Assembly (NCBI GenBank): GCA_016874675.1
Contig: VGTL01000002.1
Location: forward strand, 9,021-73,020
Origin: Methanobacteriota archaeon
GTDB taxonomy: Archaea; Thermoplasmatota; DTKX01; VGTL01
DNA: 64,000 nucleotides
Direction: 5' to 3'
Of this stretch, positions 5,241-58,860 are shown piece after piece; the first letter of the stretch is position 1, and each line of letters begins with the position of its first letter. The notes under the pieces are model-generated. The model made no database searches, was not told where the DNA came from, and saw only the letters and a program-made list of their open reading frames with translations. A program made the position numbers and the translations under genes.

Positions 5241-5262
5241 TGAAGGGGCAAGGGGCAAGGGT
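5241..5262 (+). repeat. GGGGCAA heptad mini-array (G-quadruplex-capable) in uvrA-uvrC junction
   Basis: aaggggcaaggggcaaggg lies between the uvrA stop (TAA 5234..5236) and the uvrC ATG 5264. Same heptad unit as the dispersed repeat family. Doubles as a purine-rich RBS. Confidence 0.6.
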
Positions 5263-5263
5263 T

Positions 5264-7123
5264 ATGACGGGCAGGAGGGACCGCAGGGAAGGACCGCAAA
5301 AGCCCCCGCAGGGGTTCGATGTGAGGGCACGGGCCCGGGAACTGCCCGAGCTGCCCGGCGTCTACCAGTTCCTCGACGCTTCGGGAAAGGTCCTTTACAT
5401 CGGAAAAGCGCGGAACCTGCGGAAGCGGATAGACTCCTACATACGGCCGCACTCGTGGCTCATCCCCGCGATGCTCGAAAGGGCGCGCTCGCTCGATTAT
5501 ACCGTTACGAAGACGGACCGCGAATCCCTCATCCTGGAGGCGTCGATGGTCCGCCACCACAAGCCGAGGTACAACGTGAAGCTCAAGGACGACAAGAGGT
5601 TCCCGTACCTCAAGCTCACGAAGGAGGGGTTCCCCCGCCTGATCCATGTCCGCCGGACCGCCGACGACGGGGCGACCTACTTCGGGCCTTTCACCTTCGG
5701 CCCGATAAACCGGACGATGAGGTTCGTGCGCAGGCTCTTCGGGCTGCGGCCCTGCGCCAGCCTGCTCCCGCGGGGCTGCATCTACGGGGACATGGGGAAC
5801 TGCCTGGCGCCGTGCCGGGGGAAATGCACCCAGAAGGAGTACGCGGAGGCGGTGGGGCAGGCGGCCAGATACCTCTCGGGGGAGCACCGCGCCCTCCTGA
5901 CCGGCCTCGAAGAACGGATGGAGGAGCTCTCCGAGCGGCAGGAATACGAGAAGGCTGCGGCGATCCGGGACCAGATAAGGACCGTATCCAGGCTCGCGGC
6001 GCGGCAGAGGGTGGATTTCCTCGACCCGGCCGACCGCGACGCGATCGTCGTGAGGAGGGCCGGGGCGGAGAGGGCGCTTGCGCTCCACTACTCGATAAGG
6101 GGCGGCATCGTGGTGGCGAAGAAGCACTTCAGCCTCGACGCGCCCGAAGGGTTGGGGCCCGGCGATGTCCTCGAGGGCTTCCTGACGCAGTACTACGGCA
6201 ATGCCTCCCCGCCACCGGAGATAATGATGCCCGCGGCCGTCCCGGGGCGCGCCCTGGTCGAGGACTGGCTCTCCTCGGTGGCGGGGCGCAGGGTGCGCCT
6301 GCTCCTGCCGAAGAAGGGCCCCCGGAGGAGATTGCTCGGGCTTATGGAATCGGACCTCGCCGCGCTGGCGGCCGCGATGGAGGGCGGGAAGCCGAGGGAC
6401 GGAGCCTACGACGAGGCGGCGGCCGAGCTGCAGAAGTGGCTCTGCCTTCCCCGTGTGCCGGAGAGCATCGAGGCCTACGACATATCGACGATCCAGGGGA
6501 CGAGCTCGGTCGGGGCGAAGGTGCGCTTCGAGAACGGCCTGCCGGCGAAGAGCGGGTACCGGAGGTTCAGGATCAAGAGCGTCGCCGGGCAGGACGATTT
6601 CGCCATGATGGGCGAGGTCCTCTCACGGAGGATGGGTCATATGGACGACGACCCCTTGCCGGACCTGATGTTGATCGATGGAGGCAAGGGGCAGCTAGGG
6701 GCGGCGCTAGGAGCGATGAAGAGGGCCGGAGCGAAGGGCGAGGGCGTGAAGGGAGGGGACGCGAATGTGGCGGGCGCCCGGCCGGCCCTGGCCGCGCTTG
6801 CGAAAAGGGAGGAGGAGGTGTTCGTTCCGGGAGAGGAGGCGCCCCTGCCGATTCCCCCCGGGTCGAAGGCGCGGCTCCTGCTCCAGAGGGTCCGGGACGA
6901 GGCGCACCGCTTTGCGGTCGGCTACCACCGCAAGCTCCGATCGAGGGGGCAGACCGGTTCGGCGCTGGACAGGGTCGAGGGGCTGGGCGCGAAGAAGGCG
7001 GCGGCGCTGCTCCGGCGGTTCTCGTCCGTGGCGGGAATACGGGCGGCGTCCGAGGACGAGCTGAGGCAGGTGGAGGGGATCGGGCCGAAACTGGCCAGGC
7101 AGGTCAAGGAAACCCTCGGATAA
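5264..7123 (+). CDS. uvrC: excinuclease ABC subunit C (UvrC)
   Basis: GIY-YIG N-terminal nuclease domain (LPELPGVYQFLDASGKVLYIGKARNLRKRIDSY), UvrB-interacting region, and C-terminal RNaseH-like/HhH domain (GLGAKKAAALLRRFSSVAGIRAASEDEL). ORF track starts at TTG 5240; ATG 5264 is preferred. Confidence 0.9.
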   Translation: MTGRRDRREGPQKPPQGFDVRARARELPELPGVYQFLDASGKVLYIGKARNLRKRIDSYIRPHSWLIPAMLERARSLDYTVTKTDRESLILEASMVRHHKPRYNVKLKDDKRFPYLKLTKEGFPRLIHVRRTADDGATYFGPFTFGPINRTMRFVRRLFGLRPCASLLPRGCIYGDMGNCLAPCRGKCTQKEYAEAVGQAARYLSGEHRALLTGLEERMEELSERQEYEKAAAIRDQIRTVSRLAARQRVDFLDPADRDAIVVRRAGAERALALHYSIRGGIVVAKKHFSLDAPEGLGPGDVLEGFLTQYYGNASPPPEIMMPAAVPGRALVEDWLSSVAGRRVRLLLPKKGPRRRLLGLMESDLAALAAAMEGGKPRDGAYDEAAAELQKWLCLPRVPESIEAYDISTIQGTSSVGAKVRFENGLPAKSGYRRFRIKSVAGQDDFAMMGEVLSRRMGHMDDDPLPDLMLIDGGKGQLGAALGAMKRAGAKGEGVKGGDANVAGARPALAALAKREEEVFVPGEEAPLPIPPGSKARLLLQRVRDEAHRFAVGYHRKLRSRGQTGSALDRVEGLGAKKAAALLRRFSSVAGIRAASEDELRQVEGIGPKLARQVKETLG

Positions 7124-7289
7124 TCCTCCACAATGTATATACGGCGGGGGGCGAATAATTGAGCATGGCCCGGCGAAGGACCCCGGCTCAACGGAAAAAG
7201 GACCAAGACCTGGGCTACATGCTAGTCCGGCCGGAAAGGCTGGACCGCCTGTTCGAGTACTGGGACCTGCACGGATTGGGGCTAAAGGC

Positions 7290-7898: not shown

Positions 7899-8654
7899 GT
7901 GTCCAAGCGCTGGTTCCGGGAGAAAAAGCGCGAGCACTTCTACAAGCTAGCCAAGAAGGAGCACTACCGCTCCCGCGCGGCCTACAAGCTCAAGCAGATA
8001 CAGGGCCGGTTCAACGTGATTCACTATGATTTCCTGGTCGTCGACCTGGGCGCATCCCCGGGCGGCTGGTCCCAGGTGGCGGCCGGGATAGCCGGCCGCA
8101 ACGGGAAGGTGGTCGCCATCGACCGGGCACGCATGAAGCCCGTGGAGGACGTCTTGGTCCTGCGCGGGGACATGACCAAGGACGAGACCGTGGCCGCGCT
8201 GTTCCGGGCCCTCGGGGGCCGGAAGGCGGACGTGGTGCTTTCGGACATGTCCCCGGACATCTCCGGGAACTACTCCATCGACCACGCCCGGTCAATCGAG
8301 CTTTGCGGGACCGCCCTGGCCTTCGCCCGCCGGGCCCTTCGCCCCGGGGGCAACCTCGTGGTCAAGGCCTTCCAGGGAGACCTCTTCGGCCGCTTCCTGG
8401 CCGCGGTCCGCCAAGACTTCAGAAACGTCCACGCCTTCCACCCGGAGGCCTCCCGCCCCTCGAGCTCGGAGATATACGTTGTCGCCAAGGGATACGGCAT
8501 GGAGGGCGATGGGGGGAAGGCGCGGGGCGCAGGGCGCAGGGCGCAAGGGAAGGAGCAAGGCGCAGGGCGCAAGGCGCAAGGGAAGGAGCAAGGGGCAAGG
8601 GGCAAGGGGCAAGGGATGGACGGAGGATTTCGGGAAAGGGCTGAGGAGGAATAG
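7899..8654 (+). CDS. rlmE: 23S rRNA (uridine-2-prime-O)-methyltransferase RlmE/FtsJ, with repeat-encoded low-complexity C-terminal tail
   Basis: N-terminus SKRWFREKKREHFYKLAKKEHYRSRAAYKL and SAM-binding VVDLGASPGGWSQV with K-D-K-E residues are typical FtsJ. GTG start. The last ~50 aa (GKARGAGRRAQGKEQGAGRKAQGKEQGARGKGQG...) are encoded by the heptad array. Confidence 0.85.
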   Translation: MSKRWFREKKREHFYKLAKKEHYRSRAAYKLKQIQGRFNVIHYDFLVVDLGASPGGWSQVAAGIAGRNGKVVAIDRARMKPVEDVLVLRGDMTKDETVAALFRALGGRKADVVLSDMSPDISGNYSIDHARSIELCGTALAFARRALRPGGNLVVKAFQGDLFGRFLAAVRQDFRNVHAFHPEASRPSSSEIYVVAKGYGMEGDGGKARGAGRRAQGKEQGAGRKAQGKEQGARGKGQGMDGGFRERAEEE

Positions 8655-8745
8655 GCCCCCGCTTCCCCCCTTGCTCCTTGCACCTTGACCCTTGCGCCTC
8701 CAGCCTTGCGCCTTGCGCCTTGCGCCTTGCGCCTTGATATTGCCC
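8515..8745 (+). repeat. heptad-array hairpin repeat (G-rich arm 8515..8627, C-rich complementary arm 8665..8745)
   Basis: Tandem GCGCAGG / GCGCAAG / GGGGCAA heptads, followed after a ~40-nt spacer by the complementary CCTTGCG / CCTTGCC heptads. Can form a very long imperfect hairpin. The G-rich arm contains a (G4 CAA)x3 GGG G-quadruplex motif at 8592..8615. Confidence 0.85.
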
Positions 8746-8756
8746 AAGCGCAATGC

Positions 8757-8763
8757 TTTTAAA
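8757..8763 (+). promoter_or_regulatory. TATA-like box (TTTTAAA) upstream of the L18e operon
   Basis: Only AT-rich heptamer between the repeat arm and the rpl18e ATG 8831. Confidence 0.25.
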
Positions 8764-9206: not shown

Positions 9207-9617
9207 ATGACGTTCATCGACGCCGACGGAGCGGTCCTGGGGAGGCTCGCCAGCGAGGTGGCCAAGCGCATCCTCAAGGGCGAGGAGATAACGGTCGTGA
9301 ACGCCGAGAAGGCGCTGGTCACCGGCTCCCGGGAAGACGTCTTGGACCACTACAAGGAGCAGAGGTTCATCGGGAGCACCCGCAAGGGGCCCTATTTCCC
9401 GAGGATGCCCGACCGCATCCTGCGGCGGACGGTCCGGGGAATGCTCCCTTTCAGGCAGCACCGGGGCCGCAGCGCCTACAAGCGGCTCAGGGTTTTCATC
9501 GGGGTCCCCCGGGAGCTTGGCAAGGTCCAGGCGGAGAAGGCGGGCGCCCGCCTCCTCCGGAACCCCCGGTTCATGGAGCTGGGCGAGGTCTCCCGCCTGC
9601 TGGGAGCGAAGTTCTGA
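9207..9617 (+). CDS. rpl13: 50S ribosomal protein L13 (uL13)
   Basis: [36 protein letters not shown] is the canonical archaeal L13 start. Located 4 nt after the L18e stop. Confidence 0.9.
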
Positions 9618-9627
9618 GGTGCGATGC

Positions 9628-10898: not shown

Positions 10899-11909
10899 TC
10901 AGGAGGCCCTGGGGCCGGAGCTCTTCCACCCCTTCGGGTAGGTCCCCGTCGGCATGAGGATTCTCTGGGGCGTGACGGCGATTCCCTGGTTGGTCTCCAT
11001 CATGGCCTCGGAGGCCATCTCGGCGGTGCCCAGGGCGACGCCCTCGCCCTTGGCGGTGAGCACCGCCACCCGGTCCCCCTTCGCTATCCCGCTGTCGAGG
11101 GCCACGAGCCCCGGGACCGCCAGCCGGGCCCCGTGGCACACGGCGTCCACCGCCCCGTCGCGGATGACCACCGCCGGGAGGTGCGAGAGGAGGGCCTCCA
11201 TGGGCCGCACTGCCGCCCGGAGCGGCCCCTCCTCATGGTCCTCCTTCCAGAACACGAAGGCGTCCTTGAGGTCGTGGAGCGTCACGGCCTCCCTCTCGAC
11301 GAAGCGGGCGGTCCTGGTGCGCCGGAGCTCCTGCATGTGGGCGCCCACGCCCAGAACCTCGCCGACGTCGGCGCAGAGGGTGCGGATGTAGGTGCCGGCC
11401 TGGCAGGCCGCCGAGAAGAGCACGTCCCGCCCGTCCACCTCGAGCACCGCGAGCCTGTACACCCGCCGGCTCCTCTGCTGGCGCTTTACCGCCGACCGCA
11501 GGGGCGGCACCTGGAAGATCTCGTCTTCGAACTCCGATAGCACCGAGCGGACCTTGTCCTCGCGCACGTCCTTGTGGAGCTTCATGTAGCAGACGTACTC
11601 CTTGCTCGCGTATAGCAGCGAGCCCACCGCCTTGGTGGCCTGGTCCAGCGTGACCGGCAGCACGCCCGTGACGTTGGGGTCCAGCGTGCCCCCGTGGCCG
11701 GCCCGGGGGACGCCCAGAAGGTCCCGCGCCCAGGCCGCCACCTGGTGGCTGGTCGGCCCGGCCGGCTTGTCCAAGACGACCACGCCCAGGCGGAGCAGGG
11801 CCTCGGCGCAGCGCTTCCCGGGCTCGGCGCCGAAGGCCGGGTCGGACGAAAAATCCGCCCTGACCAGCCGCCGGCGGTTGACGAACGAGGGGTCGGTGGT
11901 CTCGGGCAT
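10899..11909 (-). CDS. cbf5: tRNA/rRNA pseudouridine synthase Cbf5 (TruB family, H/ACA RNP catalytic subunit) with PUA domain
   Basis: TruB catalytic motif GHGGTLDPNVTGVLPV and C-terminal PUA region. ORF track extends the start to 12182, but that extension overlaps cmk and is low-complexity. ATG 11909 (MPETTDP) is chosen. Confidence 0.85.
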   Translation of the reverse strand: MPETTDPSFVNRRRLVRADFSSDPAFGAEPGKRCAEALLRLGVVVLDKPAGPTSHQVAAWARDLLGVPRAGHGGTLDPNVTGVLPVTLDQATKAVGSLLYASKEYVCYMKLHKDVREDKVRSVLSEFEDEIFQVPPLRSAVKRQQRSRRVYRLAVLEVDGRDVLFSAACQAGTYIRTLCADVGEVLGVGAHMQELRRTRTARFVEREAVTLHDLKDAFVFWKEDHEEGPLRAAVRPMEALLSHLPAVVIRDGAVDAVCHGARLAVPGLVALDSGIAKGDRVAVLTAKGEGVALGTAEMASEAMMETNQGIAVTPQRILMPTGTYPKGWKSSGPRAS

Positions 11910-13188: not shown

Positions 13189-13204
13189 AACGGTTGTTGA
13201 GGTT

Positions 13205-13328
13205 GGTCAAAGGCAGCAAGGCAGAAGGGCAGGAAGGGAGAAAGGCAGAAAGGGAGAACGGGGGGTCGACCGTCAGTCCCTTTCTGCCTTCCTGCCTTCC
13301 TGCCTTTGCCCGTTGCCCCTTGCCCCCC
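13205..13328 (+). repeat. heptad-array hairpin repeat between secY and DUF106 gene
   Basis: aaaggcagcaaggcagaagggcaggaagggagaaaggcagaaagggag, spacer, then complement ccctttctgccttcctgccttcctgcctttgccc. Contains the 21-mer ggcaggaagggagaaaggcag, also present at 29217 and (reverse complement) 28462. Confidence 0.85.
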
Positions 13329-13341
13329 GTGGGGCCGCTTA

Positions 13342-16091: not shown

Positions 16092-16993
16092 TTGCCGCCA
16101 CCCCCTGCGGCCGGCTTGGATTCGGGCTTCCTGGGCTCGGCCTTCGCGGGGGCCTTCGCCTCGGGGGCCCCGGCCGGGCCGCCCTTCTGGTCGGGGGCCT
16201 TGGGCGGCGGGACCGAGGAGGCGTCCTCGGGCGTGGGCACGTTCGACTCCTTCTCGATGGCCACCGACTGGTCCGCCTTGGTAGGGTCGGTCACCAGCGC
16301 GCCCTCGGCCACGCCGGAGGCGCCGCTGAGGATCCGCAGCCTGGCGACCTGCTCTTCGCGGACCTTCTGGCGGGCCGTGCCCCGAAGCGACTCGAACGCG
16401 GCCCGGGCCATGTTCACCGTGGTGCGGGTCTTGCCGTCCGTTATCGACCAGGCATCCTTGACGCCGGCGAGGCGCAGCACGTGCTTGGCGACGTTGCCCA
16501 CGGCCAGCCCCACGCCCCGGGGGGCTGGGATGAACGTTATCTCCACCGAGCCGCTCTTGCCGAAGACCCTGTACGGTAGCGTGTGGGGCTTCATGCAGCC
16601 GCACTGCCACGAGCCGCAGCCGCGCTTTATCTCGATGAGGTTGAGCTTGGCGTCGTCGATGGACCGGCGGATCGCCTGCCCGACCTCCTTGCCCTTGACG
16701 TGGCCCAGCCCGACGAAGCCGTCGCCGTTGCCCACGACGGTGGTGATGGCGAACTTGATGCGCCGCCCTGAGTCGGTCATGCGCTGGACCATGTTGACGC
16801 TGAGGACCTCGTCCTCGATGTTGGGCAAGAGGATGTCCACTATCTCCGCCTCGCGGAGCGGGAGCCCGCTCGACAGGGCCTCCGACATGGACGTTATCTT
16901 GCCCTCGCGCACCATCCGGCCCAGCTTCGTGCGGGGCTTCCAGTCGGTGACGGGTTCCTTCCTCCTCTCCATCCTCCTCTGCTCCATCTTCAA
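16088..16993 (-). CDS. rps5: 30S ribosomal protein S5 (uS5) with Pro/Ala/Lys-rich C-terminal extension
   Basis: S5 dsRBD and C-terminal domain (VGNGDGFVGLGHVKGKEVGQAIRRS...GSVEITFIPAPRGVGLAVGNVAKHVLRLAGVKDAWS). ~70-aa low-complexity tail. Confidence 0.9.
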   Translation of the reverse strand: MKMEQRRMERRKEPVTDWKPRTKLGRMVREGKITSMSEALSSGLPLREAEIVDILLPNIEDEVLSVNMVQRMTDSGRRIKFAITTVVGNGDGFVGLGHVKGKEVGQAIRRSIDDAKLNLIEIKRGCGSWQCGCMKPHTLPYRVFGKSGSVEITFIPAPRGVGLAVGNVAKHVLRLAGVKDAWSITDGKTRTTVNMARAAFESLRGTARQKVREEQVARLRILSGASGVAEGALVTDPTKADQSVAIEKESNVPTPEDASSVPPPKAPDQKGGPAGAPEAKAPAKAEPRKPESKPAAGGGGK

Positions 16994-17006
16994 TCCCCCT
17001 TGAACC

Positions 17007-17510
17007 TCAGCCGCTGAGAATCCTCCGCCTGACCTCCTCGAACTGCCTGGCCACCTCCGGTTTGTTGAGGTGGCCCCCCCTTACCCGCTCCTCCGAGGGA
17101 AGCACCCCGTCGGAGTGGGGGACCTGGACCCCGGCGTCGATGACGCCCTTGAGGGCCGCGAAGACCTTCGAGCCCCTCGACGGGCGGATGAGGCCGATGT
17201 CCAGGACCGCCTCCGTGATGTTGGCGCGCGAGGCGTTGCGCCCGGCCAGCAGGCCGGCGAGGTAGGCCGCCGGCGTGTTGCCTGTGGGCGCCTTCCACCC
17301 GAGCCCGCCGAGCTGCGCGGTGGTCGACGAGGCGAGCACGCGGTCCCCGGCCTCCTCGTAGCCGACGAGCTGGACGACGGTGTGCCTGAGGCTGCGGCGG
17401 ACGACGAGCCGCGGCTTGCCCGAGCGGACGAGCCTAAGCCGCGCCCGGTAGTCCGTCTTGCCCTCCCTTCTCCTCCTGAAGGGCACCCTGTGCCTGGGGT
17501 CGGTCGCCAT
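17007..17510 (-). CDS. rpl18: 50S ribosomal protein L18 (uL18)
   Basis: MATDPRHRVPFRRRREGKTDYRARLRLV is typical archaeal L18. Confidence 0.9.
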   Translation of the reverse strand: MATDPRHRVPFRRRREGKTDYRARLRLVRSGKPRLVVRRSLRHTVVQLVGYEEAGDRVLASSTTAQLGGLGWKAPTGNTPAAYLAGLLAGRNASRANITEAVLDIGLIRPSRGSKVFAALKGVIDAGVQVPHSDGVLPSEERVRGGHLNKPEVARQFEEVRRRILSG

Positions 17511-17512
17511 GC

Positions 17513-18196
17513 TCAGCCCTCCTTACGGCCGGCTTCGCCGGCCACTTCCGCCGCCCTCTCCGGAGGGGCCGGGGCTGCCGGCGCGGGCTTCTCCCCCGGC
17601 CGGGCCTTCTTGGCCTTCTTGCCCTTCTTCCCCCGGTGGCGCAGCTTGCGGTCGGCCTTCTTGAGCCTCCCGGGCATGATGATGCTGCGGGCCGCCTCGC
17701 GGCGGCGACGGCGCCTCTCCTCGGCGCGCTTGGCGGAGGGGCGGGCCTCGGTCCTGATTAGCCCGCGGAGCCGAAGCTGGGTGTCCAGGTGGTGGCGGTT
17801 GTGGAACATCCCGCCCTTGGCCTGCCGGTAGAGCGTCCGGTACACCGTGCGGTCGATGGTGCCCTCGTCGCGCAGCTCCCGGAGGCGCTTCCTTATGGGC
17901 CTGATGCGCGTCATCCACCGGCGCTTCGTGTCGAGGCGGGCGTTGGTGCCGCCGCGCCGGTGGGCCGGGCCCCGCCGGCGGCCCTTCTTCTTCTGGGCCC
18001 TCCTGAGGAGGCCCCGGAACCGGCCCTGGCCGGCGATCTGCCGGGCGGAGATGGCGCCCGACACGATGAGCTTGCGTACGTCCTTGCGCGTCACCGCCTC
18101 GGAGATGTCCTCGAGGCGGTTGGGGTCCATGTGGACCCGGTGCTTTCCGCAGCCGAGCATCATGGCCGCCATCCTCTTCTGGTTCGATATGTCCAT
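17513..18196 (-). CDS. rpl19e: 50S ribosomal protein L19e (eL19) with basic C-terminal extension
   Basis: MDISNQKRMAAMMLGCGKHRVHMDPNRLEDISEAVTRKDVRKLI is the canonical L19e. Confidence 0.9.
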   Translation of the reverse strand: MDISNQKRMAAMMLGCGKHRVHMDPNRLEDISEAVTRKDVRKLIVSGAISARQIAGQGRFRGLLRRAQKKKGRRRGPAHRRGGTNARLDTKRRWMTRIRPIRKRLRELRDEGTIDRTVYRTLYRQAKGGMFHNRHHLDTQLRLRGLIRTEARPSAKRAEERRRRRREAARSIIMPGRLKKADRKLRHRGKKGKKAKKARPGEKPAPAAPAPPERAAEVAGEAGRKEG

Positions 18197-25345: not shown

Positions 25346-25350
25346 CGCGC

Positions 25351-30515: not shown

Positions 30516-30521
30516 CCTCGT

Positions 30522-45980: not shown

Positions 45981-46022
45981 ATGAATAATTAAACTATGCC
46001 GGAAAATTACTATACGATTCGC

Positions 46023-46153: not shown

Positions 46154-46211
46154 CGATCTTCCCTACTGGAAATATATTAAAATACCCCGGTGTTATTTAG
46201 TGCCCCGCAAC

Positions 46212-46286
46212 GGGCCCATAGCTTAGACTGGCTGGAGCGCCCGGCTGATAACCGGGCGGTCGAGAGTTCAAATCTCTCTGGGCCCA
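46212..46286 (+). tRNA. tRNA-Ile (anticodon GAT)
   Basis: 75-nt cloverleaf: acceptor GGGCCCA/TGGGCCC, anticodon stem CCCGG/CCGGG with loop CTGATAA, T-arm GAGAG-TTCAAAT-CTCTC, discriminator A. Confidence 0.85.
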
Positions 46287-46469
46287 TGCATCCCCGAAGG
46301 GGATGCAGGCGCCTCAGCGCACAGAGATTTCAAGATTTTGATGAAACTTTTAATTGCGAACAAAGGAAGGAATTAAAAGTTTCGTTCAAATCTCTCTGGG
46401 CCCATGCATCCCCGAAGGGGATGCAGGCGCCTCAGCGCACAGAGATTTCAAGATTTTGATGAAACTTTT
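46267..46469 (+). repeat. 85-bp tandem direct repeat (2 copies, 118-bp period) including the last 20 nt of tRNA-Ile; att-site-like
   Basis: Copy 1 at 46267..46351 and copy 2 at 46385..46469 are identical: ttcaaatctctctgggcccatgcatccccgaaggggatgcaggcgcctcagcgcacagagatttcaagattttgatgaaactttt. Each contains the 9-bp-stem hairpin gcatcccc-gaa-ggggatgc. Confidence 0.85.
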
Positions 46470-49528: not shown

Positions 49529-49547
49529 GGCGTTCCCCCGGTGCCAT

Positions 49548-49642
49548 TGCGGTTGCGGGGATTCGAACCCCGGTTTGAAGCTGGTCCCGGCGCGCGGTGG
49601 CGCCATGGGAAGCTCCAGTCCTAACCACTAGACTACAACCGC
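49548..49642 (-). tRNA. tRNA-Gly (anticodon CCC) with a ~23-nt canonical-position intron
   Basis: Reverse complement: GCGGTTG TA GTCT AGTGGTTA GGAC T GGAGC TTCCCA [TGGCGCCACCGCGCGCCGGGACC] A GCTTC AAAC CGGGG TTCGAAT CCCCG CAACCGC A. Intron follows anticodon-loop position 37. Confidence 0.65.
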
Positions 49643-49662
49643 ACGGAGCTGGGGATATCTGG

Positions 49663-49735
49663 CGTTGGGGTTTGGGGTTCGGGGCATGCGAGGCAGGGGT
49701 CGGGGTACGGGGTGCGGGGTGCTGGGAAGGGAGGA
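49663..49735 (+). repeat. G-tract array (telomere-like TTTGGGG/GGGGTNC units), strong G-quadruplex motif
   Basis: ggcgttggggtttggggttcggggcatgcgaggcaggggtcggggtacggggtgcggggtgctggg. Seven G4 tracts within 65 nt. Lies between tRNA-Gly and the small ORF. Confidence 0.8.
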
Positions 49736-51499: not shown

Positions 51500-51605
51500 C
51501 GATTGGTTCGGGGGACATGCTGGCGCAGCTGGTCAAGGGGACGTGTTGGTCCTATTGGTTCGGGGGACGTGTTGTTGATGTGGGTCAGGGGGACGGAGGG
51601 GGGCG
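51500..51605 (+). repeat. ~52-bp tandem duplication with G5 tracts at convergent gene junction
   Basis: gattggttcgggggacatgctgg...ggtcaaggggacgtgttgg / ctattggttcgggggacgtgttg...gggtcagggggacggagggggg. Four copies of gggggacRtg-like cores. Confidence 0.7.
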
Positions 51606-53522
51606 GCAGCCGGGAGACCAGAAATCCGCGACGTCCCTTGCGGGGTCCGATGATTCGCGAAGGTCCGGGAGGTATTCCCTGAACTGGACGGCGCGGCGGT
51701 CCAGGATGACGGCCACGCCGCGGTCGCGCTCGCTGCGGATGAGCCTGCCGATGGTCTGCAGGAGGCGCCGGGCGGTCGGGGCCCTCACGGCGTAGTCCCA
51801 GCCCTTCCCGAACCGTATGTCGTAGTAGTACTGGAGCGCCTTCTGGCGGGCCGTCGGCTTCGGGTAGGGGATGCCCACGATGACGGCGACGTCCAGCTCC
51901 CGGTCGGGGAAGTCGATGCCCTCGCTGACCCGGCCCCCGATCACGGAGAGCAGTACCGCGCCCTCCTCGCCCCTCCGGCCCTCCTCCTTGAAGCTGTCCA
52001 CGGTCTCGAGCAGGTCCTGCTGGCTGGCGCCCCGCTCCTCGACGAATATCCGGCGGCCGGCGGACCGCCCCAGCCCCATCGCCAGGGAGCGCTCCAAAAG
52101 GTCGAAGCTCGGGAAGAACACCGCGGTGTTGCGGGAGGTGGCGCGGCAGATCTCCCCGGCCTTGCCAAGTATCCCGGAGAACATCTCCTCGTCGGTGAGC
52201 CGGTCCTCGTACTTCATCGAGACCGACGGGTCGCAGAGCACGAGGCGGTTCTCCGGGGGGAAGATGCCGGGGAAGGCGCGTAAAAGCGTCCGGTCGCCCA
52301 ACCCCAGGGAGTCCCGGTACTCCTCGAGGGGCGAGAGCGTCCCGGACATGTGCAGGCCCGAGTGGCAGCGGCCCAGGGGTTCGGAGGCGAGGCCGGGGTC
52401 CATGCAGTAGGCCTCGAGGCGGGGGCTCTCCCCGTCCTTCACGAGCTTGACATAGGCGTCGCTCTCCAGGCCCATCCAGAGCGCCAGGAAGGAGCCCACG
52501 GAGTGGAGGTGGGACCGCGGCACGCGGCCCCCCTTGCGCCGGTTCTCCCTTATCGCCTCGCCGTGGGCGGCCAGGTTCGCCACGGCCGACTCGAGCCGGT
52601 TGGAGGTCCAGCGGAAGGAGTACATGAGCTCCTCCTCCACCGCGCCCGGCGGCACCATGCCGTCCTCGTCGATGAGGTACTCGTCGCGCAGCTGGAGGAC
52701 TATCTGCTCCATCCGGGCGCAGAGATCGCTGACCCGGACCTCGTCTTGGACGTACAGCCCTCCCAGCTCCGTCGCCTCCTGCGAGGCGAGCCTGAGGGTC
52801 TGCAGGCCCAGCGAGAGCGACTTGAGCGAGCGGGCGAACTCGGGCAGGTTGTGCGCCTCGTCCACCACCACCACGAGGTCCTCGAGCGGGCAGTTCATCC
52901 AGTCGAGGAGCCGGGCGCGTATGAACGGGCTGAGAAAGTAGACGTAGGGCGCGACCACCACCGCGGCGGAGCGCGCGAGGAGCTTGGCGGCCTCATATGG
53001 GCAGAGCCCCGCCTCCCGGCAGTGCCGGGCCATCTCCTCCACCGTGGGCAGCGTGCGCTCGCACCAGGACTGGAGCTCTCCGGTCCCGGCGGCCCGGAGC
53101 TCCTCGAAGAACGGGCAGCCGCCCGGCTCGCGACGGCGGGAGGTCTCCTTCCGGTCGTTGCAGAGCACCGAGAGCTCCTCGGGGGAGGCCGTCCTCCACT
53201 CCCGCTCGGTCGCGAGCAGGAGGCAGGTGCTGTGGCGCCCCTGGATGCCCGTGCCCAGCACGCGGGAGCGGCCCGAGATGGCCCGAAGCTCCCGGAACAC
53301 CTGCACCTGCTGGGAGTTGGTCCGGGTGAGATACAGCAGCCGCTTGCCGTGCCGGGCGGCACCGAAGAGCGCCGGCACGAGGGCGCAGACCGTCTTGCCC
53401 GTGCCGGAGCCCGCCTCGGCGAGGGCGCTCGTCCCCGACCCCACCGCACCGGCGAAGAGCCCCATCAGCTCGAGCTGGACGGGGCGGGGCTCGTAGGGGA
53501 ACATCCCGAGGTGGGAATCCAT
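51585..53522 (-). CDS. xpd: ATP-dependent DNA helicase, XPD/Rad3 (ERCC2) family with Fe-S domain
   Basis: Motif I EAGSGTGKT, motif II VVVDEAHNL (DEAH), four Fe-S cysteines in the Arch/FeS insertion (HSTC...C..C..C), C-terminal HD2 motifs (GIDFPDRELDVAVIVGIPYP, RLIRSERDRGVAVILD). Confidence 0.88.
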   Translation of the reverse strand: MDSHLGMFPYEPRPVQLELMGLFAGAVGSGTSALAEAGSGTGKTVCALVPALFGAARHGKRLLYLTRTNSQQVQVFRELRAISGRSRVLGTGIQGRHSTCLLLATEREWRTASPEELSVLCNDRKETSRRREPGGCPFFEELRAAGTGELQSWCERTLPTVEEMARHCREAGLCPYEAAKLLARSAAVVVAPYVYFLSPFIRARLLDWMNCPLEDLVVVVDEAHNLPEFARSLKSLSLGLQTLRLASQEATELGGLYVQDEVRVSDLCARMEQIVLQLRDEYLIDEDGMVPPGAVEEELMYSFRWTSNRLESAVANLAAHGEAIRENRRKGGRVPRSHLHSVGSFLALWMGLESDAYVKLVKDGESPRLEAYCMDPGLASEPLGRCHSGLHMSGTLSPLEEYRDSLGLGDRTLLRAFPGIFPPENRLVLCDPSVSMKYEDRLTDEEMFSGILGKAGEICRATSRNTAVFFPSFDLLERSLAMGLGRSAGRRIFVEERGASQQDLLETVDSFKEEGRRGEEGAVLLSVIGGRVSEGIDFPDRELDVAVIVGIPYPKPTARQKALQYYYDIRFGKGWDYAVRAPTARRLLQTIGRLIRSERDRGVAVILDRRAVQFREYLPDLRESSDPARDVADFWSPGCRPPPSP

Positions 53523-55188: not shown

Positions 55189-55271
55189 TAATTCCTACAA
55201 CAGACTTCAATGTTTATATCCTTATTGGTCTTTTTCATGTCGGGTATTGAGACTTGGCCCGATAGGCGGAC

Positions 55272-55360
55272 GGGGAAGGGGAGCGGGCAGCGGGCAGCGG
55301 GCAGCGGGGAGCGGTGACGGAACGAATCCGTCCGTCCACCGCTCCCCGCTGCCCCGCTGG
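55272..55360 (+). repeat. GGGCAGC heptad-array hairpin (15-bp perfect stem cagcggggagcggtg / caccgctccccgctg)
   Basis: ggggaaggggagcgggcagcgggcagcgggcagcggggagcggtgacggaacgaatccgtccgtccaccgctccccgctgccccgctgg. Confidence 0.85.
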
Positions 55361-55377
55361 ATCAATTGGAGGGAATG

Positions 55378-55450: not shown

Positions 55451-55497
55451 TTGTCCATCCCACATCGGGGGGAACCGATTTGAATATTTCGCGCGAT

Positions 55498-55630
55498 GGC
55501 AGGGTGCAGGGTGCAGGGTGCGGGGTGCGGGGTGCGGGGTAACGTACGGTGTCCATCTTGAACCCGGTACCCCATGCCCCGAGATATCCCCCGCACCCTG
55601 CACCCTGCACCCTGCACCCCGCACCCTGCG
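55498..55630 (+). repeat. GCAGGGT/GCGGGGT heptad-array hairpin with G-quadruplex motif
   Basis: (gcagggt)x3(gcggggt)x3; 50-nt spacer; complement (cccgcac)(cctgcac)x3 cccgcaccctgcgg. Confidence 0.85.
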
Positions 55631-55703
55631 GTCGGCCACGAGCTTTATATTGTCGTTCGGACATCCCGGTTTCCCTTCGCCAGGGGGAGCTGGTAGGGTT
55701 CGC

Positions 55704-56705
55704 ATGAACCTTGGTCGGCGGCTTGTGATCGCCATCGGTGGAAATGCAATCCTGCAAGAGGGCCAGAGGGGCACCGCCGAGGAGCAACGGGCCAACCTGG
55801 AGGTCGCCTGCGAGTCCCTCGCCGCGCTCATCCGCCCCGGCGTCAATGTCGTCCTCACGCACGGGAACGGCCCCCAGGTGGGGAACATTCTCGTCCAGAA
55901 CGAGGCCGCCAGGGCGCAGGTGCCGGCGCTCCCGCTCGATGTCTGCGGGGCCCAGTCCCAGGGCTCCCTGGGCTATCTGATCCAGCAGGTCCTGTCCGGA
56001 GTCCTCCGGAGCCGCAACATCCGGCGCGATGTGATGGCGCTCGTCACCCAGACCGTGGTGTCCCCCGACGACCCGGCGTTCCTCTCCCCGAGCAAGCCCA
56101 TCGGCCCATATTACAGGGAGCCCGAGGCCCGCGCTCTCTCGCAGGAGAAGGGATGGAAGCTCGTCGAGGTCGGCAAGCGCCACTGGCGGAGGGTGGTGGC
56201 CTCGCCCGACCCGCTGGAGATCGTGGAGAAGGGGATGATCCGGAAGCTCATGCGCCAGGGGACGGTCGTCATAGCGGCAGGCGGCGGGGGCATCCCGGTG
56301 GTGCGGCGCGACGGGAGGCTCGCCGGCGTGGAGGCGGTTGTCGACAAGGACCTGGCCTCGGCCACCCTGGCGCGCGATGTCGGGGCCGACGCGATGATCC
56401 TGCTCACTGACATAGAGAAGGTGGCCATCAACTTCCGCACCCCGGAGGAGCGGTTCCTGGACCGGATGACCGTGGAGGAGGCGGGGCGATATCTCAAGGC
56501 GGGCCACTTTCCGGCGGGGAGCATGGGACCGAAGATAGAGGCGGCGATCAGGTTCCTGGCCCCCAGGCCGGAGCCCACGCTGGACTCGTTTGGCGCGCCG
56601 GGAGCCCGGTTCTCCCGCCCGCAGCTCAAGGTCATCATAGCCTCCCTGAACGCCGCCGAGCGGGCAGCCCGCGGGAAGACCGGCACCACCATCACCCCGG
56701 ACTGA
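55704..56705 (+). CDS. arcC: carbamate kinase
   Basis: MNLGRRLVIAIGGNAI start, HGNGPQVG, and AAGGGGIPV are carbamate kinase signatures. ATG 55704; the ORF track extension runs through the repeat and tRNA. Confidence 0.85.
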   Translation: MNLGRRLVIAIGGNAILQEGQRGTAEEQRANLEVACESLAALIRPGVNVVLTHGNGPQVGNILVQNEAARAQVPALPLDVCGAQSQGSLGYLIQQVLSGVLRSRNIRRDVMALVTQTVVSPDDPAFLSPSKPIGPYYREPEARALSQEKGWKLVEVGKRHWRRVVASPDPLEIVEKGMIRKLMRQGTVVIAAGGGGIPVVRRDGRLAGVEAVVDKDLASATLARDVGADAMILLTDIEKVAINFRTPEERFLDRMTVEEAGRYLKAGHFPAGSMGPKIEAAIRFLAPRPEPTLDSFGAPGARFSRPQLKVIIASLNAAERAARGKTGTTITPD

Positions 56706-56736
56706 TGTCCGGGGCTCTACGCTATGCTGTGGTGAA

Positions 56737-56900
56737 ACGACCCGGAATGAGAGCCGGGGCATCTAGCTTTCAGGCGGACCGCACCCTGCCCGCTGCCCGC
56801 TGCCCGCTGCCTGCAGCTCCCTCACCCTTCCATCACCTCACCCCCCTGCATCCCGCGCCCTGCACCTTGTAGCCTCGCAACCCTGCCCCTTGACCCTTGA
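56737..56900 (+). repeat. second copy of composite module (hairpin + atctagctttca + C-rich heptad arrays)
   Basis: cgacccggaatgagagccggggcatctagctttca (56737..56772) is ~80% identical to 30381..30417. Followed by ggcggaccgcaccctgcccgctgcccgctgcccgctgcc ... ccctgcaccttgtagcctcgcaaccctgccccttgacccttgacccttgaccc. Confidence 0.8.
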
Positions 56901-56965
56901 CCCTTGACCCGTTCCCCGATAGTATAAATATCCCCTGCCCTCTATACGGGTACGAAGGAGACCGG

Positions 56966-57335: not shown

Positions 57336-58184
57336 ATGCAATCCAGAGTTCTAGATTTCCTGGAGACCCGCGTCGACGCCCTCAAGCACAGGGACAAGGA
57401 CCAAGACGAGATGCGCCGCACCGGATCGGAGATCTTCGACGAGCGCACGCTGATGGTCCTCTACAAGCTCCTCAGCACGGGCGTGTTCGACACGCTCGAG
57501 TTCCCCATCTCTACTGGGAAGGAGGCCAACATCTTCCGGGGGACCAAGGGCGACCGGTTCGTCGCCGTCAAGATCTACCGCGTCGCCACGGCCACCTTCA
57601 AGAGCTTCGGCAAGTACATCATCGGCGACCCGCGCTTTAGGAGCATCGGCCGGGACCACCGCGGCCTCATCGGCCTTTGGGCCCAGAAGGAGTACAAGAA
57701 CCTGCTGCGCCTGGGAGAGGCGGGAGTGCGCGTCCCGGAGCCGATCACCTGCCGCGAGCACGTGCTTGTCATGGAGTACATCGGGCAGCCGGACGCCGCC
57801 GCCCCGATGTTGCGCGACGCCGGGCTCGACCGCGCCGGCCTCGAGCGCGTCAGGCACGAGGTGCTCGCATTCTTCGACCGCAGCCACAACCGGGCCGGCC
57901 TCGTCCACGGCGACCTGAGCGAGTACAACATACTCGTCGACCGCGGAAGGACCGTCTTCATCGACCTCGCCCAGGCGGTGGTGCTGGAACATCCGATGGC
58001 CGCGGAGCTCTTGGTGCGCGACCTGCACAACATGGCCGCCTGGTTCGGGAGGAAGGGCCTGCCGTTCGACTGGAAGGTCGTCCACAACCAGGTGCTCTCG
58101 AGGAGCAGGCGGCTCGTCTCGGACCGGTCAAAGGCGCGGCGGCGGACCCGGCGGGCCGGGCGCCGATGCGAAGAGGAGGAGTGA
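57336..58184 (+). CDS. RIO-type serine/threonine protein kinase (Rio1-like)
   Basis: STGKEANIFRG (RIO P-loop), VAVKIYRV, VMEYIG, catalytic LVHGDLSEYNILV, and DLAQAV. Confidence 0.85.
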   Translation: MQSRVLDFLETRVDALKHRDKDQDEMRRTGSEIFDERTLMVLYKLLSTGVFDTLEFPISTGKEANIFRGTKGDRFVAVKIYRVATATFKSFGKYIIGDPRFRSIGRDHRGLIGLWAQKEYKNLLRLGEAGVRVPEPITCREHVLVMEYIGQPDAAAPMLRDAGLDRAGLERVRHEVLAFFDRSHNRAGLVHGDLSEYNILVDRGRTVFIDLAQAVVLEHPMAAELLVRDLHNMAAWFGRKGLPFDWKVVHNQVLSRSRRLVSDRSKARRRTRRAGRRCEEEE

Positions 58185-58186
58185 GT

Positions 58187-58756
58187 GTGGAACATTTCCT
58201 GAAGATTCCCAGGGACAGGATCGGCGCCCTCATAGGACCCGGGGGCAGGGTCAAGCGGGAGATGGAGAAAAGGACGGGCATCCGGGTCGATGTCGAGTCC
58301 GAGACCGGGGAGGTCACCATCCACTACGATTCGGCCCGAGACCCGGCCCTGGTGCTAAAGGTCAACGACCTCGTGAAGGCCGTCGGCAGGGGGTTCTCCC
58401 CCCAGCGCGCCATGCGGCTGCTCAAGGACGACCAGTTCTTCGCCGTCATCGACATCCAGGACTACGTCGGCAAGAAGGTGGACCACGTCCGCCGGATGCG
58501 GGCGCGCGTCATAGGCACCGGCGGCAAGACCCGCCGGGTGATCGAGGAGCTCTCCGAGGCGGAGCTCTCCGTCTACGGCGACACCGTCGCCATCATCGGC
58601 GACCCGGTCTCGCTGGACATCGCCCGGACCGCGGTGGACATGATTCTCAACGGCTCGGAGCACTCGGCCGTCTACTCCTACCTTGAGCACACCAGGCGCG
58701 AGCGGCGGCTGGCCGAGCTCCGGCCCCCGGAGGACCGGGTCAAAGAGGAAGAATAA
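58187..58756 (+). CDS. KH-domain RNA-binding protein (archaeal Dim2/Pno1-like)
   Basis: Two KH-like GxxG motifs (IGALIGPGGRVKRE; VIGTGGKTRRVIEE). GTG start 3 nt after the Rio stop, with RBS gaggagg. Confidence 0.75.
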   Translation: MEHFLKIPRDRIGALIGPGGRVKREMEKRTGIRVDVESETGEVTIHYDSARDPALVLKVNDLVKAVGRGFSPQRAMRLLKDDQFFAVIDIQDYVGKKVDHVRRMRARVIGTGGKTRRVIEELSEAELSVYGDTVAIIGDPVSLDIARTAVDMILNGSEHSAVYSYLEHTRRERRLAELRPPEDRVKEEE

Positions 58757-58860
58757 AGGCAGCAGGCAACTGGCAGCGGGCAGTGGTGGGACGACGGACA
58801 ATCGTCCCCCGCTGCCCGCTGCCTCTGCCCCGCTGCCCCCCCGCCGCTCCCCGCTGCCCC
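58757..58860 (+). repeat. GGCAGCG heptad-array hairpin between convergent genes
   Basis: aaaggcagcaggcaactggcagcgggcagtggtgggacgacggacaatcgtcccccgctgcccgctgcctctgccccgctgcc. Confidence 0.8.

Follow-up and report, generated by a model that had tools for sequence, protein, structure and literature searches.

STRR sequences were reportedly described in heterocystous cyanobacteria by Mazel and colleagues in 1990. Proteobacteria carry many copies of REP/BIME sequences, extragenic imperfect palindromes that often lie at the 3' ends of genes or separate convergent genes and may influence mRNA stability, termination, and DNA topology; REPs measure 20–40 nt, share one consensus throughout the genome (5' GTAG), and have a dedicated Y1 transposase gene (RAYT). 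In the ampliconic palindromes of the human Y chromosome and the inverted repeats of plastids, gene conversion between the arms maintains their identity, and bacteria and yeast correct quasipalindromes by template switching. Heptamer simple sequence repeats (SSRs) are well described in bacteria, including Nostoc, Xanthomonas, and Beggiatoaceae (PMC4692102, PMC4679880); Rehm et al. 2015 (PMC4692102) described GGGAATC and GGGGA(C/T)T repeats in Xanthomonas and Nostoc, and MacGregor 2015 (PMC4679880) described TAACTGA repeats in Beggiatoaceae, cyanobacteria, and Bacteroidetes. In PMC4692102, the LSSR(5–11) class is cited from Mrazek et al. 2007, and slippage is proposed for heptamers with reference to the same study. 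Surveys place archaea last among the domains in short tandem repeats, at 1.02 bp/kb with STRs defined differently from the arrays considered here (PMC12699852), and recurrent potential G-quadruplex (G4) sequences followed by a 3' C-rich tract have been described in Methanomicrobiaceae (Chashchina et al. 2021, PMC8044849).

We analyzed a 64-kb stretch of DNA (the window) from a contig of 66% GC that belongs to an uncultured Thermoplasmata archaeon; the sequence covered amounts to ~76 kb of the host genome and ~64 kb of sister genomes. Tandem Repeats Finder (TRF) returned ~30 rows of period 7 or 8 in the window, totaling 1,173 bp. Dinucleotide-preserving shuffles of the window contained a mean of 1.7 arrays (39 bp) and a maximum of 5 arrays (118 bp), that is, ~30-fold fewer array bases than observed. 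Non-coding DNA holds 95% of the 7/8-nt array bases, which make up ~18% of all non-coding DNA in the window, and 79% of the bases in arrays of 3n period lie within genes. Some units are octads rather than heptads (e.g., AAGGCAGN). The initial annotation had listed heptad arrays at 15 loci, and period-7/8 arrays are present at 13 of these. The remaining two were rejected: 28290–28500 is a low-complexity, K/E/G-rich in-frame insertion of the ribosomal protein L3 gene with 9/18-nt periodicity, not an intergenic array, and 51500–51605 is a repeat with a period of 26 nt. The further claim that most arrays have a complementary C-rich partner is accurate for seven loci, which are true palindromes (elements A–G), and the other six are single-arm. 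The array-bearing loci are as follows, with gene and promoter coordinates that are partly approximate and no strand assigned to the hairpins.

5243–5261, plus strand: short single-arm array of AAGGGGC (×2.7) occupying the 27-nt spacer from the uvrA stop to the uvrC start.
8505–8745, no strand: element A, hairpin between the FtsJ 3' end and the TATA box of the L18e operon (TTTTAAA near 8757); −158 kcal/mol; G-arm 8514–8620, C-arm 8662–8738 (TRF array 8514–8738).
13203–13330, no strand: element B, octad/heptad hairpin from the secY stop (13342) to EMC3/DUF106, both genes on the minus strand; z −6.1 (TRF 13209–13326).
25255–25348, minus strand: single-arm purine- and G-rich array, on the gene strand, in the S19–L22 gap inside the ribosomal operon.
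29215–29275, plus strand: single-arm octad array of AAGGCAGN (×4.5) and GGCGCAG, antisense to the promoter region of the L3 operon and lying upstream of it (TRF 29215–29250).
30291–30516, minus strand: arrays that are C-rich on the plus strand (CCCTGCA, CCTTGCG, TCCCTTGC), between convergent genes and split by an 85-nt two-hairpin module; the sense strand is G-rich, directly past the PPIase stop (30522).
33668–33856, no strand: element C, hairpin of irregular mirrored units in the divergent-promoter spacer of a minus-strand surface-protein gene and plus-strand ThrRS; the longest palindrome, with arms 33674–33741 and 33759–33826 (68 nt, 93% complementary; TRF 33675–33849).
46020–46156, no strand: element D, octad hairpin whose apex is GGAACGGAACGAACCGTCGTCC; on one side is the promoter of a cation-efflux gene (minus), on the other the divergent promoter of tRNA-Ile (plus) (TRF 46023–46153).
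49665–49726, plus strand: single-arm G-rich array (TTGGGGT, GGGGTGC) from the stop of a 73-aa gene to tRNA-Trp.
55268–55362, no strand: element E, GGGCAGC hairpin with loop GGTGACGGAACGAATCCGTCCGTCCACC, located past the 3' end of tRNA-Cys and ahead of the promoter of the Robl operon (TRF 55278–55359).
55494–55636, no strand: element F, GGGTGCR hairpin in the spacer where the promoters of tRNA-Cys and carbamate kinase diverge; z −10 (TRF 55499–55629).
56786–56910, plus strand: single-arm C-rich arrays (CTGCCCG ×3.7, CCCTTGA ×3.4) from the carbamate kinase stop to the eIF-1A TATA box.
58754–58862, no strand: element G, GGCAGCG hairpin filling the spacer of convergent KH-domain and cupin genes; z −8.3 (TRF 58757–58860).

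The palindromes consist of a G-rich arm, a loop, and a C-rich arm, with arms of 27–68 nt that are 78–100% complementary. Hairpin length is variable (95–240 nt), predicted folding energies range from −60 to −158 kcal/mol, and z-scores are −6 to −10 for B, E, F, and G, the four in the window that were compared with shuffled sequence. The G-arm of element A is a 33-nt higher-order repeat made of GGCGCAR/GGGGCAA heptads, through which the FtsJ open reading frame continues to a stop at 8654. The G-rich arm lies 5' of the C-rich arm in every heptad hairpin found in the clade, as well as in 22 of 24 hairpins on unrelated metagenome contigs (0 reversed). Cyanobacterium-like contigs and contigs of high-GC bacteria built on the same plan also turned up in the metagenome scan. 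Arrays typically start 0–15 nt past a stop codon and end ~12–24 nt short of the following TATA box. Of the three convergent gene pairs in the window, two have arrays, as do four of the seven divergent-promoter spacers (full hairpins in three, a single-arm array in one), and the contexts originally named, which also include both sides of tRNA-Cys and the secY–DUF106/EMC3 gap, were confirmed.

Sister species, whose SecY and carbamate kinase are 90% and 75–76% identical to those of the window, respectively, have hairpins in the same spacers, with conserved, alignable flanks and mostly different units. In L203, L208, and L210, arrays or hairpins of other units occupy the secY–EMC3, uvrA–uvrC, carbamate kinase–eIF1A, and KH/cupin spacers and both sides of tRNA-Cys. 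The uvrA–uvrC spacer of L203 contains a different heptad (CCGTGAR ×5), and its secY–EMC3 spacer, the site of element B, contains an orthologous hairpin of GGGTGCC units. Orthologues of element E in L208 and L210 are hairpins of GGGTGGAA units, those of element F are composed of CCGTGAR units, and those of element G are composed of CCGTGAG units in L208 and GAAGGGT units in L210. The site of 56786–56910 holds full hairpins in L208 and L210, the tRNA-Trp spacer holds arrays of the window's unit family in both, and the cupin/S8 spacer has no array in any of the compared genomes. Hairpin pairing is kept across species, as all orthologous hairpins tested fold with z-scores of −2.4 to −10 and control spacers have z-scores of ~0. 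Within the population, the single variant seen is an 8-nt indel at 13276, where L003, from another sample, has one extra octad (GAAAGGGA) in element B. The arrays are not confined to this region: contig L171, which on its composition (r = 0.895 with the window) and three matching unit families appears to belong to the same clade, has five arrays within 11.8 kb, one of them being a copy of element E at an unrelated locus.

We consider it reasonably probable (about 0.6) that the arrays are long-unit (7–8 nt) microsatellites of the STRR/LSSR(5–11) type, remodeled in place in a high-GC Thermoplasmata lineage. About half are organized as inverted pairs that form palindromes with arms of 30–70 bp. 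Arrays gain or lose whole units within the population, and the same spacers stay occupied across sister species while the units mostly differ; this in situ turnover follows microsatellite dynamics. Replication slippage would create the arrays and keep remodeling them, as supported by the L003 octad indel, the higher-order repeat of element A, and assembly breaks in hairpins. Selection against frameshifts would restrict 7/8-nt periods to non-coding DNA, and 3n periods would build up in genes. Slippage alone explains neither the recurrence of a few units at many loci nor arm complementarity, and for these we infer conversion and fold-back steps. Complementarity may be kept by DNA-level copying from arm to arm, through fold-back or template-switch synthesis or arm-to-arm gene conversion, and the frequent apex mini-palindrome ACGG...CCGT could serve as a fold-back point. 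Ectopic conversion between arrays would homogenize the unit repertoire of each genome and now and then copy a whole hairpin elsewhere; the pair formed by element E and L171 7944–8059 supports dispersal or conversion. The system is restricted to a lineage, with arrays absent from more distant relatives (SecY 85–87% identical and lower), L205–L207 (85–87%) among them, and from 80 syntenic loci of other Thermoplasmata, and operates at the level of DNA rather than RNA, given hairpins between divergent promoters and no sense-strand bias in stability.

Hairpins at at least seven orthologous sites, despite unit turnover at most of them, are also expected from selection on structure. We regard it as unlikely that the hairpins are selected as bidirectional terminators, insulators, or 3'-end stabilizers of a GC-rich archaeon with scarce oligo-U, with structure kept while sequence drifts. 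The spacing of arrays from stops and TATA boxes and their presence between convergent genes agree with such a role, as does the G-first polarity, by which a polymerase from either side first makes G-rich RNA on a C-rich template, a configuration that favors pausing and R-loops. Reporter work also suggests that Nostoc heptamer repeats modulate promoter use (bioRxiv 10.1101/2022.06.06.494920). However, read-through transcription is not expected in the four occupied divergent-promoter spacers, six loci are single arms, no consistent T-tract follows the hairpins in the window, and the relatives L205–L207 lack hairpins. Archaeal termination as currently understood, moreover, requires oligo-U and not hairpins, and folding does not favor the sense strand (the antisense strand is favored in five of the eight compared). 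A structured-RNA family, as the initial annotation had proposed, is likewise unlikely because an Rfam search of the window returned tRNAs only, no sequence consensus exists across loci, four hairpins or arrays separate divergent promoters, and stability is not biased toward the sense strand. The alternative proposal of a MITE- or REP/BIME-like non-autonomous family, whose hairpins would be copied by a trans-acting transposase and whose heptad periodicity would be an element property, correctly describes the hairpins as real, palindromic, dispersed, extragenic, and similar to REPs in where they lie and how they are shaped. Every genome has a small set of unit families of its own that recurs at many loci, the ACGG...CCGT core is common to several apices, the sequences at 29215 and 46025 match at 92% over 38 nt, and the reported perfect 21-mer does occur three times (none expected from shuffles), once in the 29215–29275 array and once in the L3 insertion, where it encodes GRKGERQ. 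Element E and L171 7944–8059 have arms and a 12/12-nt loop core in common (~80% identical); this pair and the 21-mer could reflect real transposition. We nevertheless consider mobility of a defined element quite improbable: neither target-site duplications nor conserved termini were found at window loci, length is not fixed, no clean empty site was found, about half of the loci are single arms, and the sole polymorphism is a one-unit indel. The window has no Y1 or other transposase gene, the only Y1 gene found being an IS200-like pseudogene in the relative L204, and with the same spacers filled in three or four species, for the most part by sequences that differ, insertion would have had to hit identical sites repeatedly and independently.

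It is very doubtful that the arrays are G4 regulatory repeats, as proposed for the GGGAATC repeats of Xanthomonas and Nostoc and the potential G4 sequences (PQS) of Methanomicrobiaceae. Some arrays contain canonical G4 motifs (8592–8615, 49696–19, 55272–94, 55502–25, and others), ~14 of the 25 window PQS fall in arrays, and the order of G-tract and C-tract agrees with PMC8044849; however, 25 PQS are no significant excess over shuffles (19.0 ± 3.9), the commonest families (AAGGCGC and AAGGCAGN; in relatives CCGTGAR and AAGTTGAC) have only GG runs or none, and the complementary arm would out-compete G4 folding. Chance low-complexity sequence or assembly artefact is refuted for practical purposes. 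Independent assemblies break inside hairpins, contigs often end there, and L204 departs from L203 within a C-arm, perhaps through a chimeric join, but independent JGI and Logan assemblies from different samples have identical sequence through the arrays, shuffles are far poorer in array bases, and orthologous hairpins are present in other species and other studies.

Under the microsatellite reading, about a fifth (~18%) of the host's non-coding DNA consists of fast-evolving 7–8-base tandem repeats, about half in hairpin palindromes. A polymerase from either side likely meets these very stable hairpins or cruciforms G-rich strand first, so that they may passively block polymerases or insulate neighboring transcription units from each other, although their existence needs no such function.

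Compared with REP/BIME, the window elements lack a consensus and any RAYT seen, have a 7/8-nt internal period, and have arms two to three times longer. Gene-conversion palindromes offer a DNA-level route by which inverted arms can co-evolve without selection per base pair, and conversion-style copying may operate in the window; those palindromes span kilobases rather than tens of bases, and the window arms are in themselves microsatellites. The view that no archaeal equivalent is known was nearly right, the exception being the Methanomicrobiaceae repeats, which are also archaeal, interspersed, strictly intergenic, and represented by lineage-specific variants, and in which a G-rich segment precedes a complementary 3' C-rich tract so that hairpin and G4 compete (PMC8044849). 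About half of them lie between tail-to-tail genes, with no strand correlation with neighbors; in contrast to the tandem heptads and long arms of the window, they are single short (~20–35 nt) motifs of four G-runs, and positional conservation with unit turnover is not described for them (PMC8044849). The bacterial heptamer SSRs are alike in their 7-nt (and 8-nt) tandem units, strong non-coding bias, few units common to many loci per genome, inverted stem-loop-capable pairs, and high-GC genome. They show the same positional asymmetry, with the G-rich strand sense after stops and antisense upstream of genes, and the same variability between close species, in which the same gene pairs are occupied and length and sequence are highly variable (PMC4692102). 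The window differs in its archaeal host, its very high array density, its long palindromes (arms up to 68 nt), the mixing of several unit families in one arm, and the lack of a preference for four units or of general G4 potential; its arrays are also common between divergent promoters, where those of Xanthomonas and Nostoc are under-represented. On balance, we favor the interpretation that the window arrays are an archaeal version of the heptamer microsatellites of cyanobacteria and Xanthomonas rather than a transposon or RNA gene family.

The window has a GC content of 66% and encodes an archaeal ribosomal-protein/secY cluster (L32e, L19e, S4e, Rpp29, SUI1, and EMC3/DUF106), uvrABC, a ThrRS with an archaeal editing domain, and four tRNAs, one of which contains an intron. 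Several independent assemblies (JGI 3300020109 and 3300020083; Logan SRR7008372 and SRR7989281) contain contigs with the same or almost the same sequence; the Ga01941xx sample series is probably from Lake Tanganyika. The best matches of its SecY among GTDB species representatives are Thermoplasmata proteins with only 60–68% identity; among the homologous proteins compared with the window, those of SecY share 90% (P0002), 87% (P0004), and 85% (P0006) identity, and those of carbamate kinase 76% (P0124) and 75% (P0128).

The repeat arrays of this region are a genuine and striking feature of the genome, best explained as long-unit microsatellites that evolve in situ and are paired into palindromes. 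The initial annotation listed 15 heptad-array loci, and at 13 of these TRF finds arrays of period 7 or 8 with 2.6–14.6 copies, arranged head to tail as in long-unit simple sequence repeats (SSRs). Merged, the period-7/8 arrays amount to 1,173 bp, compared with a mean of 39 bp and a maximum of 118 bp in 30 dinucleotide-preserving shuffles. The other two loci are repeats of different kinds:

27640-28863, minus strand: ribosomal protein L3 gene, enlarged in frame by some 70 residues of low-complexity, K/E/G-rich sequence, especially at 28290-28500
51502-51606: 26-nt repeat, three copies (ATTGGTTCGGGGGACGTGTTGG...), between two convergent genes, one of 468 aa and one for an XPD-like helicase

The L3 insertion, taken for an intergenic array, has 9/18-nt periodicity; it includes, in translated form, the 21-mer whose other occurrences lie in intergenic octad arrays, and all three exact occurrences reported for this 21-mer (13228, 29217, and its reverse complement at 28462) are real. 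The repeat at 51502-51606, read as heptads, has a period of 26 nt and is missing from L208 and L210, two contigs of sister species in which the spacers are much shorter. The L32e, S5, L24, S17, and L19e genes also look enlarged by repeats with periods of 9–21 nt (17603, 18656-18693, 18995-19041, and 21491-21749).

True palindromes, composed of a G-rich arm followed by a C-rich arm, are confined to seven of the loci; the six remaining array loci have a single arm, and the initial annotation's description of most loci as imperfect palindromes is too wide. The seven hairpins are:

8505-8745: element A
13203-13330: element B
33668-33856: element C
46020-46156: element D
55268-55362: element E
55494-55636: element F
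58754-58862: element G

Their arms are 27–68 nt long with 78–100% complementarity, their predicted folding energies range from -60 to -158 kcal/mol, and the folding z-scores of four of them (B, E, F, and G) are -6 to -10 relative to shuffles. In element C the mirroring extends to the irregular units (arms of 68 nt, 93% complementary); its two arms are thus not independent arrays, one having been copied from the other.

Comparison with relatives places the trait in a sub-clade. None of 80 syntenic secY loci of other Thermoplasmata, some with a GC content of 0.66–0.73, contains arrays of the window type, and their period-7/8 repeats amount to 0–4.5 bp/kb versus 16.3 bp/kb in the window. The sister-species contigs L203, L208, and L210 (GC 0.64–0.67) have arrays or hairpins at the orthologous secY-EMC3, uvrA-uvrC, carbK-eIF1A, KH/cupin, and tRNA-Trp spacers and on both sides of tRNA-Cys; the flanks of these spacers align well, TATA boxes included, and the units differ from those of the window except at the tRNA-Trp site. 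The window families are AAGGCGC (six arrays), AGGGTGC (three), AGCGGGC (three), and AAGGCAGN; the relatives use AAGGGTGG, A[AG]CCGTG, and AAGGGACGT, with the first two replacing the window's units in L208 and L210. Thus, as in long-unit SSRs, a few units are reused at many loci within a genome and are different in related genomes. Every orthologous hairpin tested has a much more favorable predicted fold than its shuffles, unlike the control spacers. The divergent-promoter spacer between cupin and S8 has no array in L203, L208, or L210, and in the more distant relatives L205–L207 (GC 0.60–0.63) the spacers are short or plain and lack hairpins. From these orthologous spacers we conclude that the sites are old and the sequences young, each genome having its own unit repertoire; the sister species provide a clean natural experiment in which position and hairpin are retained and the sequence is replaced at most sites. 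We also note that in L203 the place of element A (compared at window 8738-8760) is taken by an IS element with rve/HTH transposase genes (16100-18097); the IS element lies upstream of the conserved L18e TATA box and is preceded by a short G-rich remnant, GAAGGGGAAAAGGAAGGCGCAC.

Change on a shorter time scale is seen in L003, a contig from another sample: across 8.7 kb it carries two substitutions and a single insertion of 8 nt relative to the window. This insertion is exactly one octad, located within element B at 13276; as a single instance of unit-number polymorphism, it directly supports a slippage origin of the arrays. The two arms of a hairpin presumably change together, and units are probably homogenized within a genome. 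Several independent contigs terminate within a hairpin (window 13278, 55314, and about 55598). In addition, L203 and a relative's contig, L204, which have identical SecY sequences, part ways inside the C-rich arm of the secY hairpin (L203 11658-11690 and L204 1840-1880); beyond this point L204 contains unrelated genes, among them an IS200-like TnpA pseudogene, and a further octad hairpin at 4250-4370. This divergence is either an array-mediated rearrangement or a chimeric assembly join.

The arrays had been interpreted as a MITE/REP-like element family, a reading that the window does not bear out: shared termini, target-site duplications, and a clean empty site were all looked for and not found, and the window encodes no transposase. 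A MITE is delimited by terminal inverted repeats with fixed ends and bordered by a target-site duplication; when the flanks of the seven hairpins are compared, neither common termini nor direct repeats emerge. At secY-EMC3, L205 and L206 lack the hairpin, but their short spacer cannot be aligned as a clean empty site, and in the sister species a different hairpin occupies this position. REP/BIME elements are palindromes of 20–40 nt with a genome-wide consensus; here, the arms measure 27–68 nt, at least five unit families are in use, and the loops are only partly related to one another. A RAYT/Y1 system was considered given the Y1_Tnp gene beside an L204 hairpin; however, this gene is an N-terminally disrupted, degraded IS200-like TnpA, and a tblastn search with its protein gave no match in the window or the other loci. 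One sign of copying between loci was found: element E and positions 7944-8059 of L171, an 11.8-kb contig, are unrelated loci that have arms and the loop core GGTGACGGAACG in common (12/12). L171 has a tetranucleotide signature that correlates with the clade at r = 0.895 (0.37–0.79 for the other compared contigs, outside the clade), encodes archaeal HTH domains, has TATA-like boxes, and has three unit families in common with the window. We read this likeness as more probably the result of ectopic conversion or occasional duplication than of transposition.

The alternative proposal of a structured-RNA family fares no better. An Rfam scan of the window at the gathering score recovers four tRNAs and nothing else, arrays lie between divergent promoters, and there is no alignable consensus across loci. 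The sense RNA is the better folder in only one of the eight hairpins with a defined direction of through-transcription; this lack of bias between sense and antisense folding leads us to reject selection at the RNA level. With respect to intrinsic termination, a T-run follows the stem in elements A and G but not in B or E, and terminators have far shorter stems. The Rfam result, the divergent placement, the folding test, and the inconsistent T-tracts point to an origin or constraint at the DNA level. The complementary C-rich tract 3' of the G-rich arm, a feature of G-quadruplex repeat elements, is present in all hairpins, and only a subset of elements has four or more G3+ tracts with short loops. 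G4 formation is not the unifying property, given the dominant units, which carry GG runs only, and the number of potential quadruplex sequences (25 in the window versus 19.0 +/- 3.9 in shuffles, no excess). In addition, an 85-nt repeat occurs twice (30335-30417 and 56690-56772; about 70% identity, 63/92 aligned columns). It is composed of two small GC hairpins, the first with a compensatory change (CCCCGC...GCGGGG versus CCCCGG...CCGGGG), followed by ATCTAGCTTTCA, and C-rich heptad arrays directly follow both copies. The carbamate kinase stop codon lies in a loop of the 56690-56772 copy, and the repeat is absent after carbK in L208 and L210; possible readings are a module resembling a terminator and a segmental copy of small size.

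Our interpretation of the arrays as microsatellites is accompanied by a characteristic placement. According to an approximate gene map based on the called genes of two matching contigs (L001 and L005), Pfam matches, and GC3, 9.8% of the window is non-coding; this fraction holds 95% of the period-7/8 array bases, which make up about 18% of it, whereas 79% of the array bases with periods of 3n lie inside genes. Such a partition would be expected if a genome is prone to slippage and selection then removes frameshifts. Arrays occupy 13 of the 33 spacers of at least 40 nt: two of three convergent spacers (the third holds the 26-nt repeat), four of seven divergent-promoter spacers (full hairpins in three), and seven of 23 tandem spacers. 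They start 0–15 nt past stop codons and end about 12–24 nt before TATA-like boxes, thereby filling the free spacer between the two. Because neither arm contains a stop codon in any of the six frames, ORFs run through the arrays and ORF calls are inflated, as for the ThrRS, surface-protein, and cation-efflux ORFs and for the following:

7899-8654: FtsJ methyltransferase ORF, for which public calls cross the G-rich arm of element A

The array-encoded tail of this ORF, GKARGAGRRAREGARRRAQGARKEQGARGKGQG..., spans roughly 45 residues, giving 251 aa versus 197–240 aa in orthologs of relatives. Broken metagenome assemblies and inflated ORF calls are the practical cost of the arrays.

Two features near tRNA genes were recorded alongside the arrays:

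46266-46351 and 46384-46469: 86-nt perfect direct repeat, 118 nt from start to start
49547-49643, minus strand: intron-containing tRNA, undetermined type with a 4-base anticodon (ccca) in ARAGORN; 55 bits with the Rfam tRNA model

The final 21 nt of tRNA-Ile (46212-46286) form the beginning of the first 86-nt copy, and the repeat thus duplicates part of a tRNA 3' end, an arrangement like that of an integrase att site. Between the copies lies an AT-rich hairpin (46333-46393), and one Logan contig, L006, ends in this region. Either the excision of an integrative element or a tandem duplication could have left this repeat. L208 and L210 retain both the intron-containing tRNA and the G-rich array upstream of it, and the polyprenyl synthase ORF upstream is over-called across it.

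The order of the arms is a further regularity of the hairpins. Reverse complementation of a palindrome composed of a G-rich arm, loop, and C-rich arm preserves the order, which is therefore independent of the strand, and the 5' arm is G-rich in every heptad hairpin found in the window, L171, L203, L204, L208, and L210. A metagenome scan for three successive GGSGCAR units matched at least 116 contigs (not a census; the window's own contigs are not among the matches listed), and since the pattern was scanned on both strands it introduces no orientation bias. The matches listed include 24 hairpins in which each arm is a 7/8-nt array; of these, 22 are G-first, two neutral, and none C-first. Several of these listed contigs are bacterial, and the low-GC ones resemble cyanobacterial STRR arrays. 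The high-GC bacterial contigs L107, L128, L157, L175, and others among the matches listed contain GGGGCAA units, CAGGGCG units (up to 25 copies), and G-first hairpins, and some of them come from the window's JGI sample series. L107, L128, and L157 do not belong to the window's organism given their bacterial genes (RsmB, formate dehydrogenase-N, and ribulokinase), and only L171 groups with the window among the high-GC contigs of that series. The occurrence of the window's unit types in bacterial contigs indicates that the heptad vocabulary is common to both domains. The apex frequently contains a palindrome of the form ACGG...CCGT or GACG...CGTC, for example, GGAACGGAACGAACCGTCGTCC:

Window 13256-13276, 46061-46083, 55312-55340, and 58783-58808, and also 50-88: apex motif
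L171 7987-8016: apex motif
L208 about 9600-9625 and 11050-11085: apex motif

A 13-bp hairpin near tRNA-Thr, caacaacgaacgg...ccgttcgttgttg, carries the same motif. Searches of the window and loci with the core motif (GACGGAACGAAYCCGTC and short variants) gave matches too short or gapped for significance, so the apex motif stands as an observation only; a scan of viral contigs gave apex-motif matches at the chance level for 14 specified bases and seven sporadic, uninformative matches to an octad triple.

It is tempting, though in our estimation unlikely, to regard G-first polarity and the ACGG...CCGT apex as the signature of one process common to bacteria and archaea. Such a process might be DNA synthesis primed by a nascent, G-rich 3' end after snap-back or a template switch, in which case the hairpins would be scars of break or fork repair that grow by slippage. 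Alternatively, selection might favor a "G-rich-first" barrier to transcription that works in both directions, polymerases from either side being met by a G-rich non-template strand; if so, this clade would possess a hairpin-type terminator/insulator of a type not known in Archaea. As far as we could find, the polarity rule is not stated explicitly in the literature; it offers a constraint, both simple and testable, that any mechanism must satisfy.

In cyanobacteria, knowledge of heptamer microsatellites goes back more than 30 years, and in Xanthomonas about a decade, with no agreement on their origin and function. They are over-represented in large high-GC bacterial genomes, lie scattered between genes, and vary among closely related species (PMC4692102, PMC4679880, PMC6749651), and reporter assays in Nostoc hint at promoter modulation (bioRxiv 10.1101/2022.06.06.494920). 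Archaea are reported to be the domain poorest in STRs (PMC12699852), the cases so far being idiosyncratic simple G-rich repeats and a short Methanomicrobiaceae motif (PMC8044849), and our non-exhaustive literature search turned up no account of an archaeon with dense heptad-array palindromes. The arrays described here are best read as an archaeal variant of the known bacterial phenomenon, and as neither a MITE/REP family nor an RNA family, and they extend the same heptamer architecture, at very high density, beyond cyanobacteria and Xanthomonas. Given that this archaeon differs from bacteria in its replisome and in its transcription machinery and lacks Rho, explanations that invoke the bacterial polymerase, Rho, or Shine-Dalgarno mimicry are not general. 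In the Xanthomonas and Nostoc repeats the G-rich strand is sense after stop codons and antisense upstream of ORFs (PMC4692102), a positional asymmetry that matches the polarity rule observed here, as does the 3' C-tract of the Methanomicrobiaceae repeats (PMC8044849).
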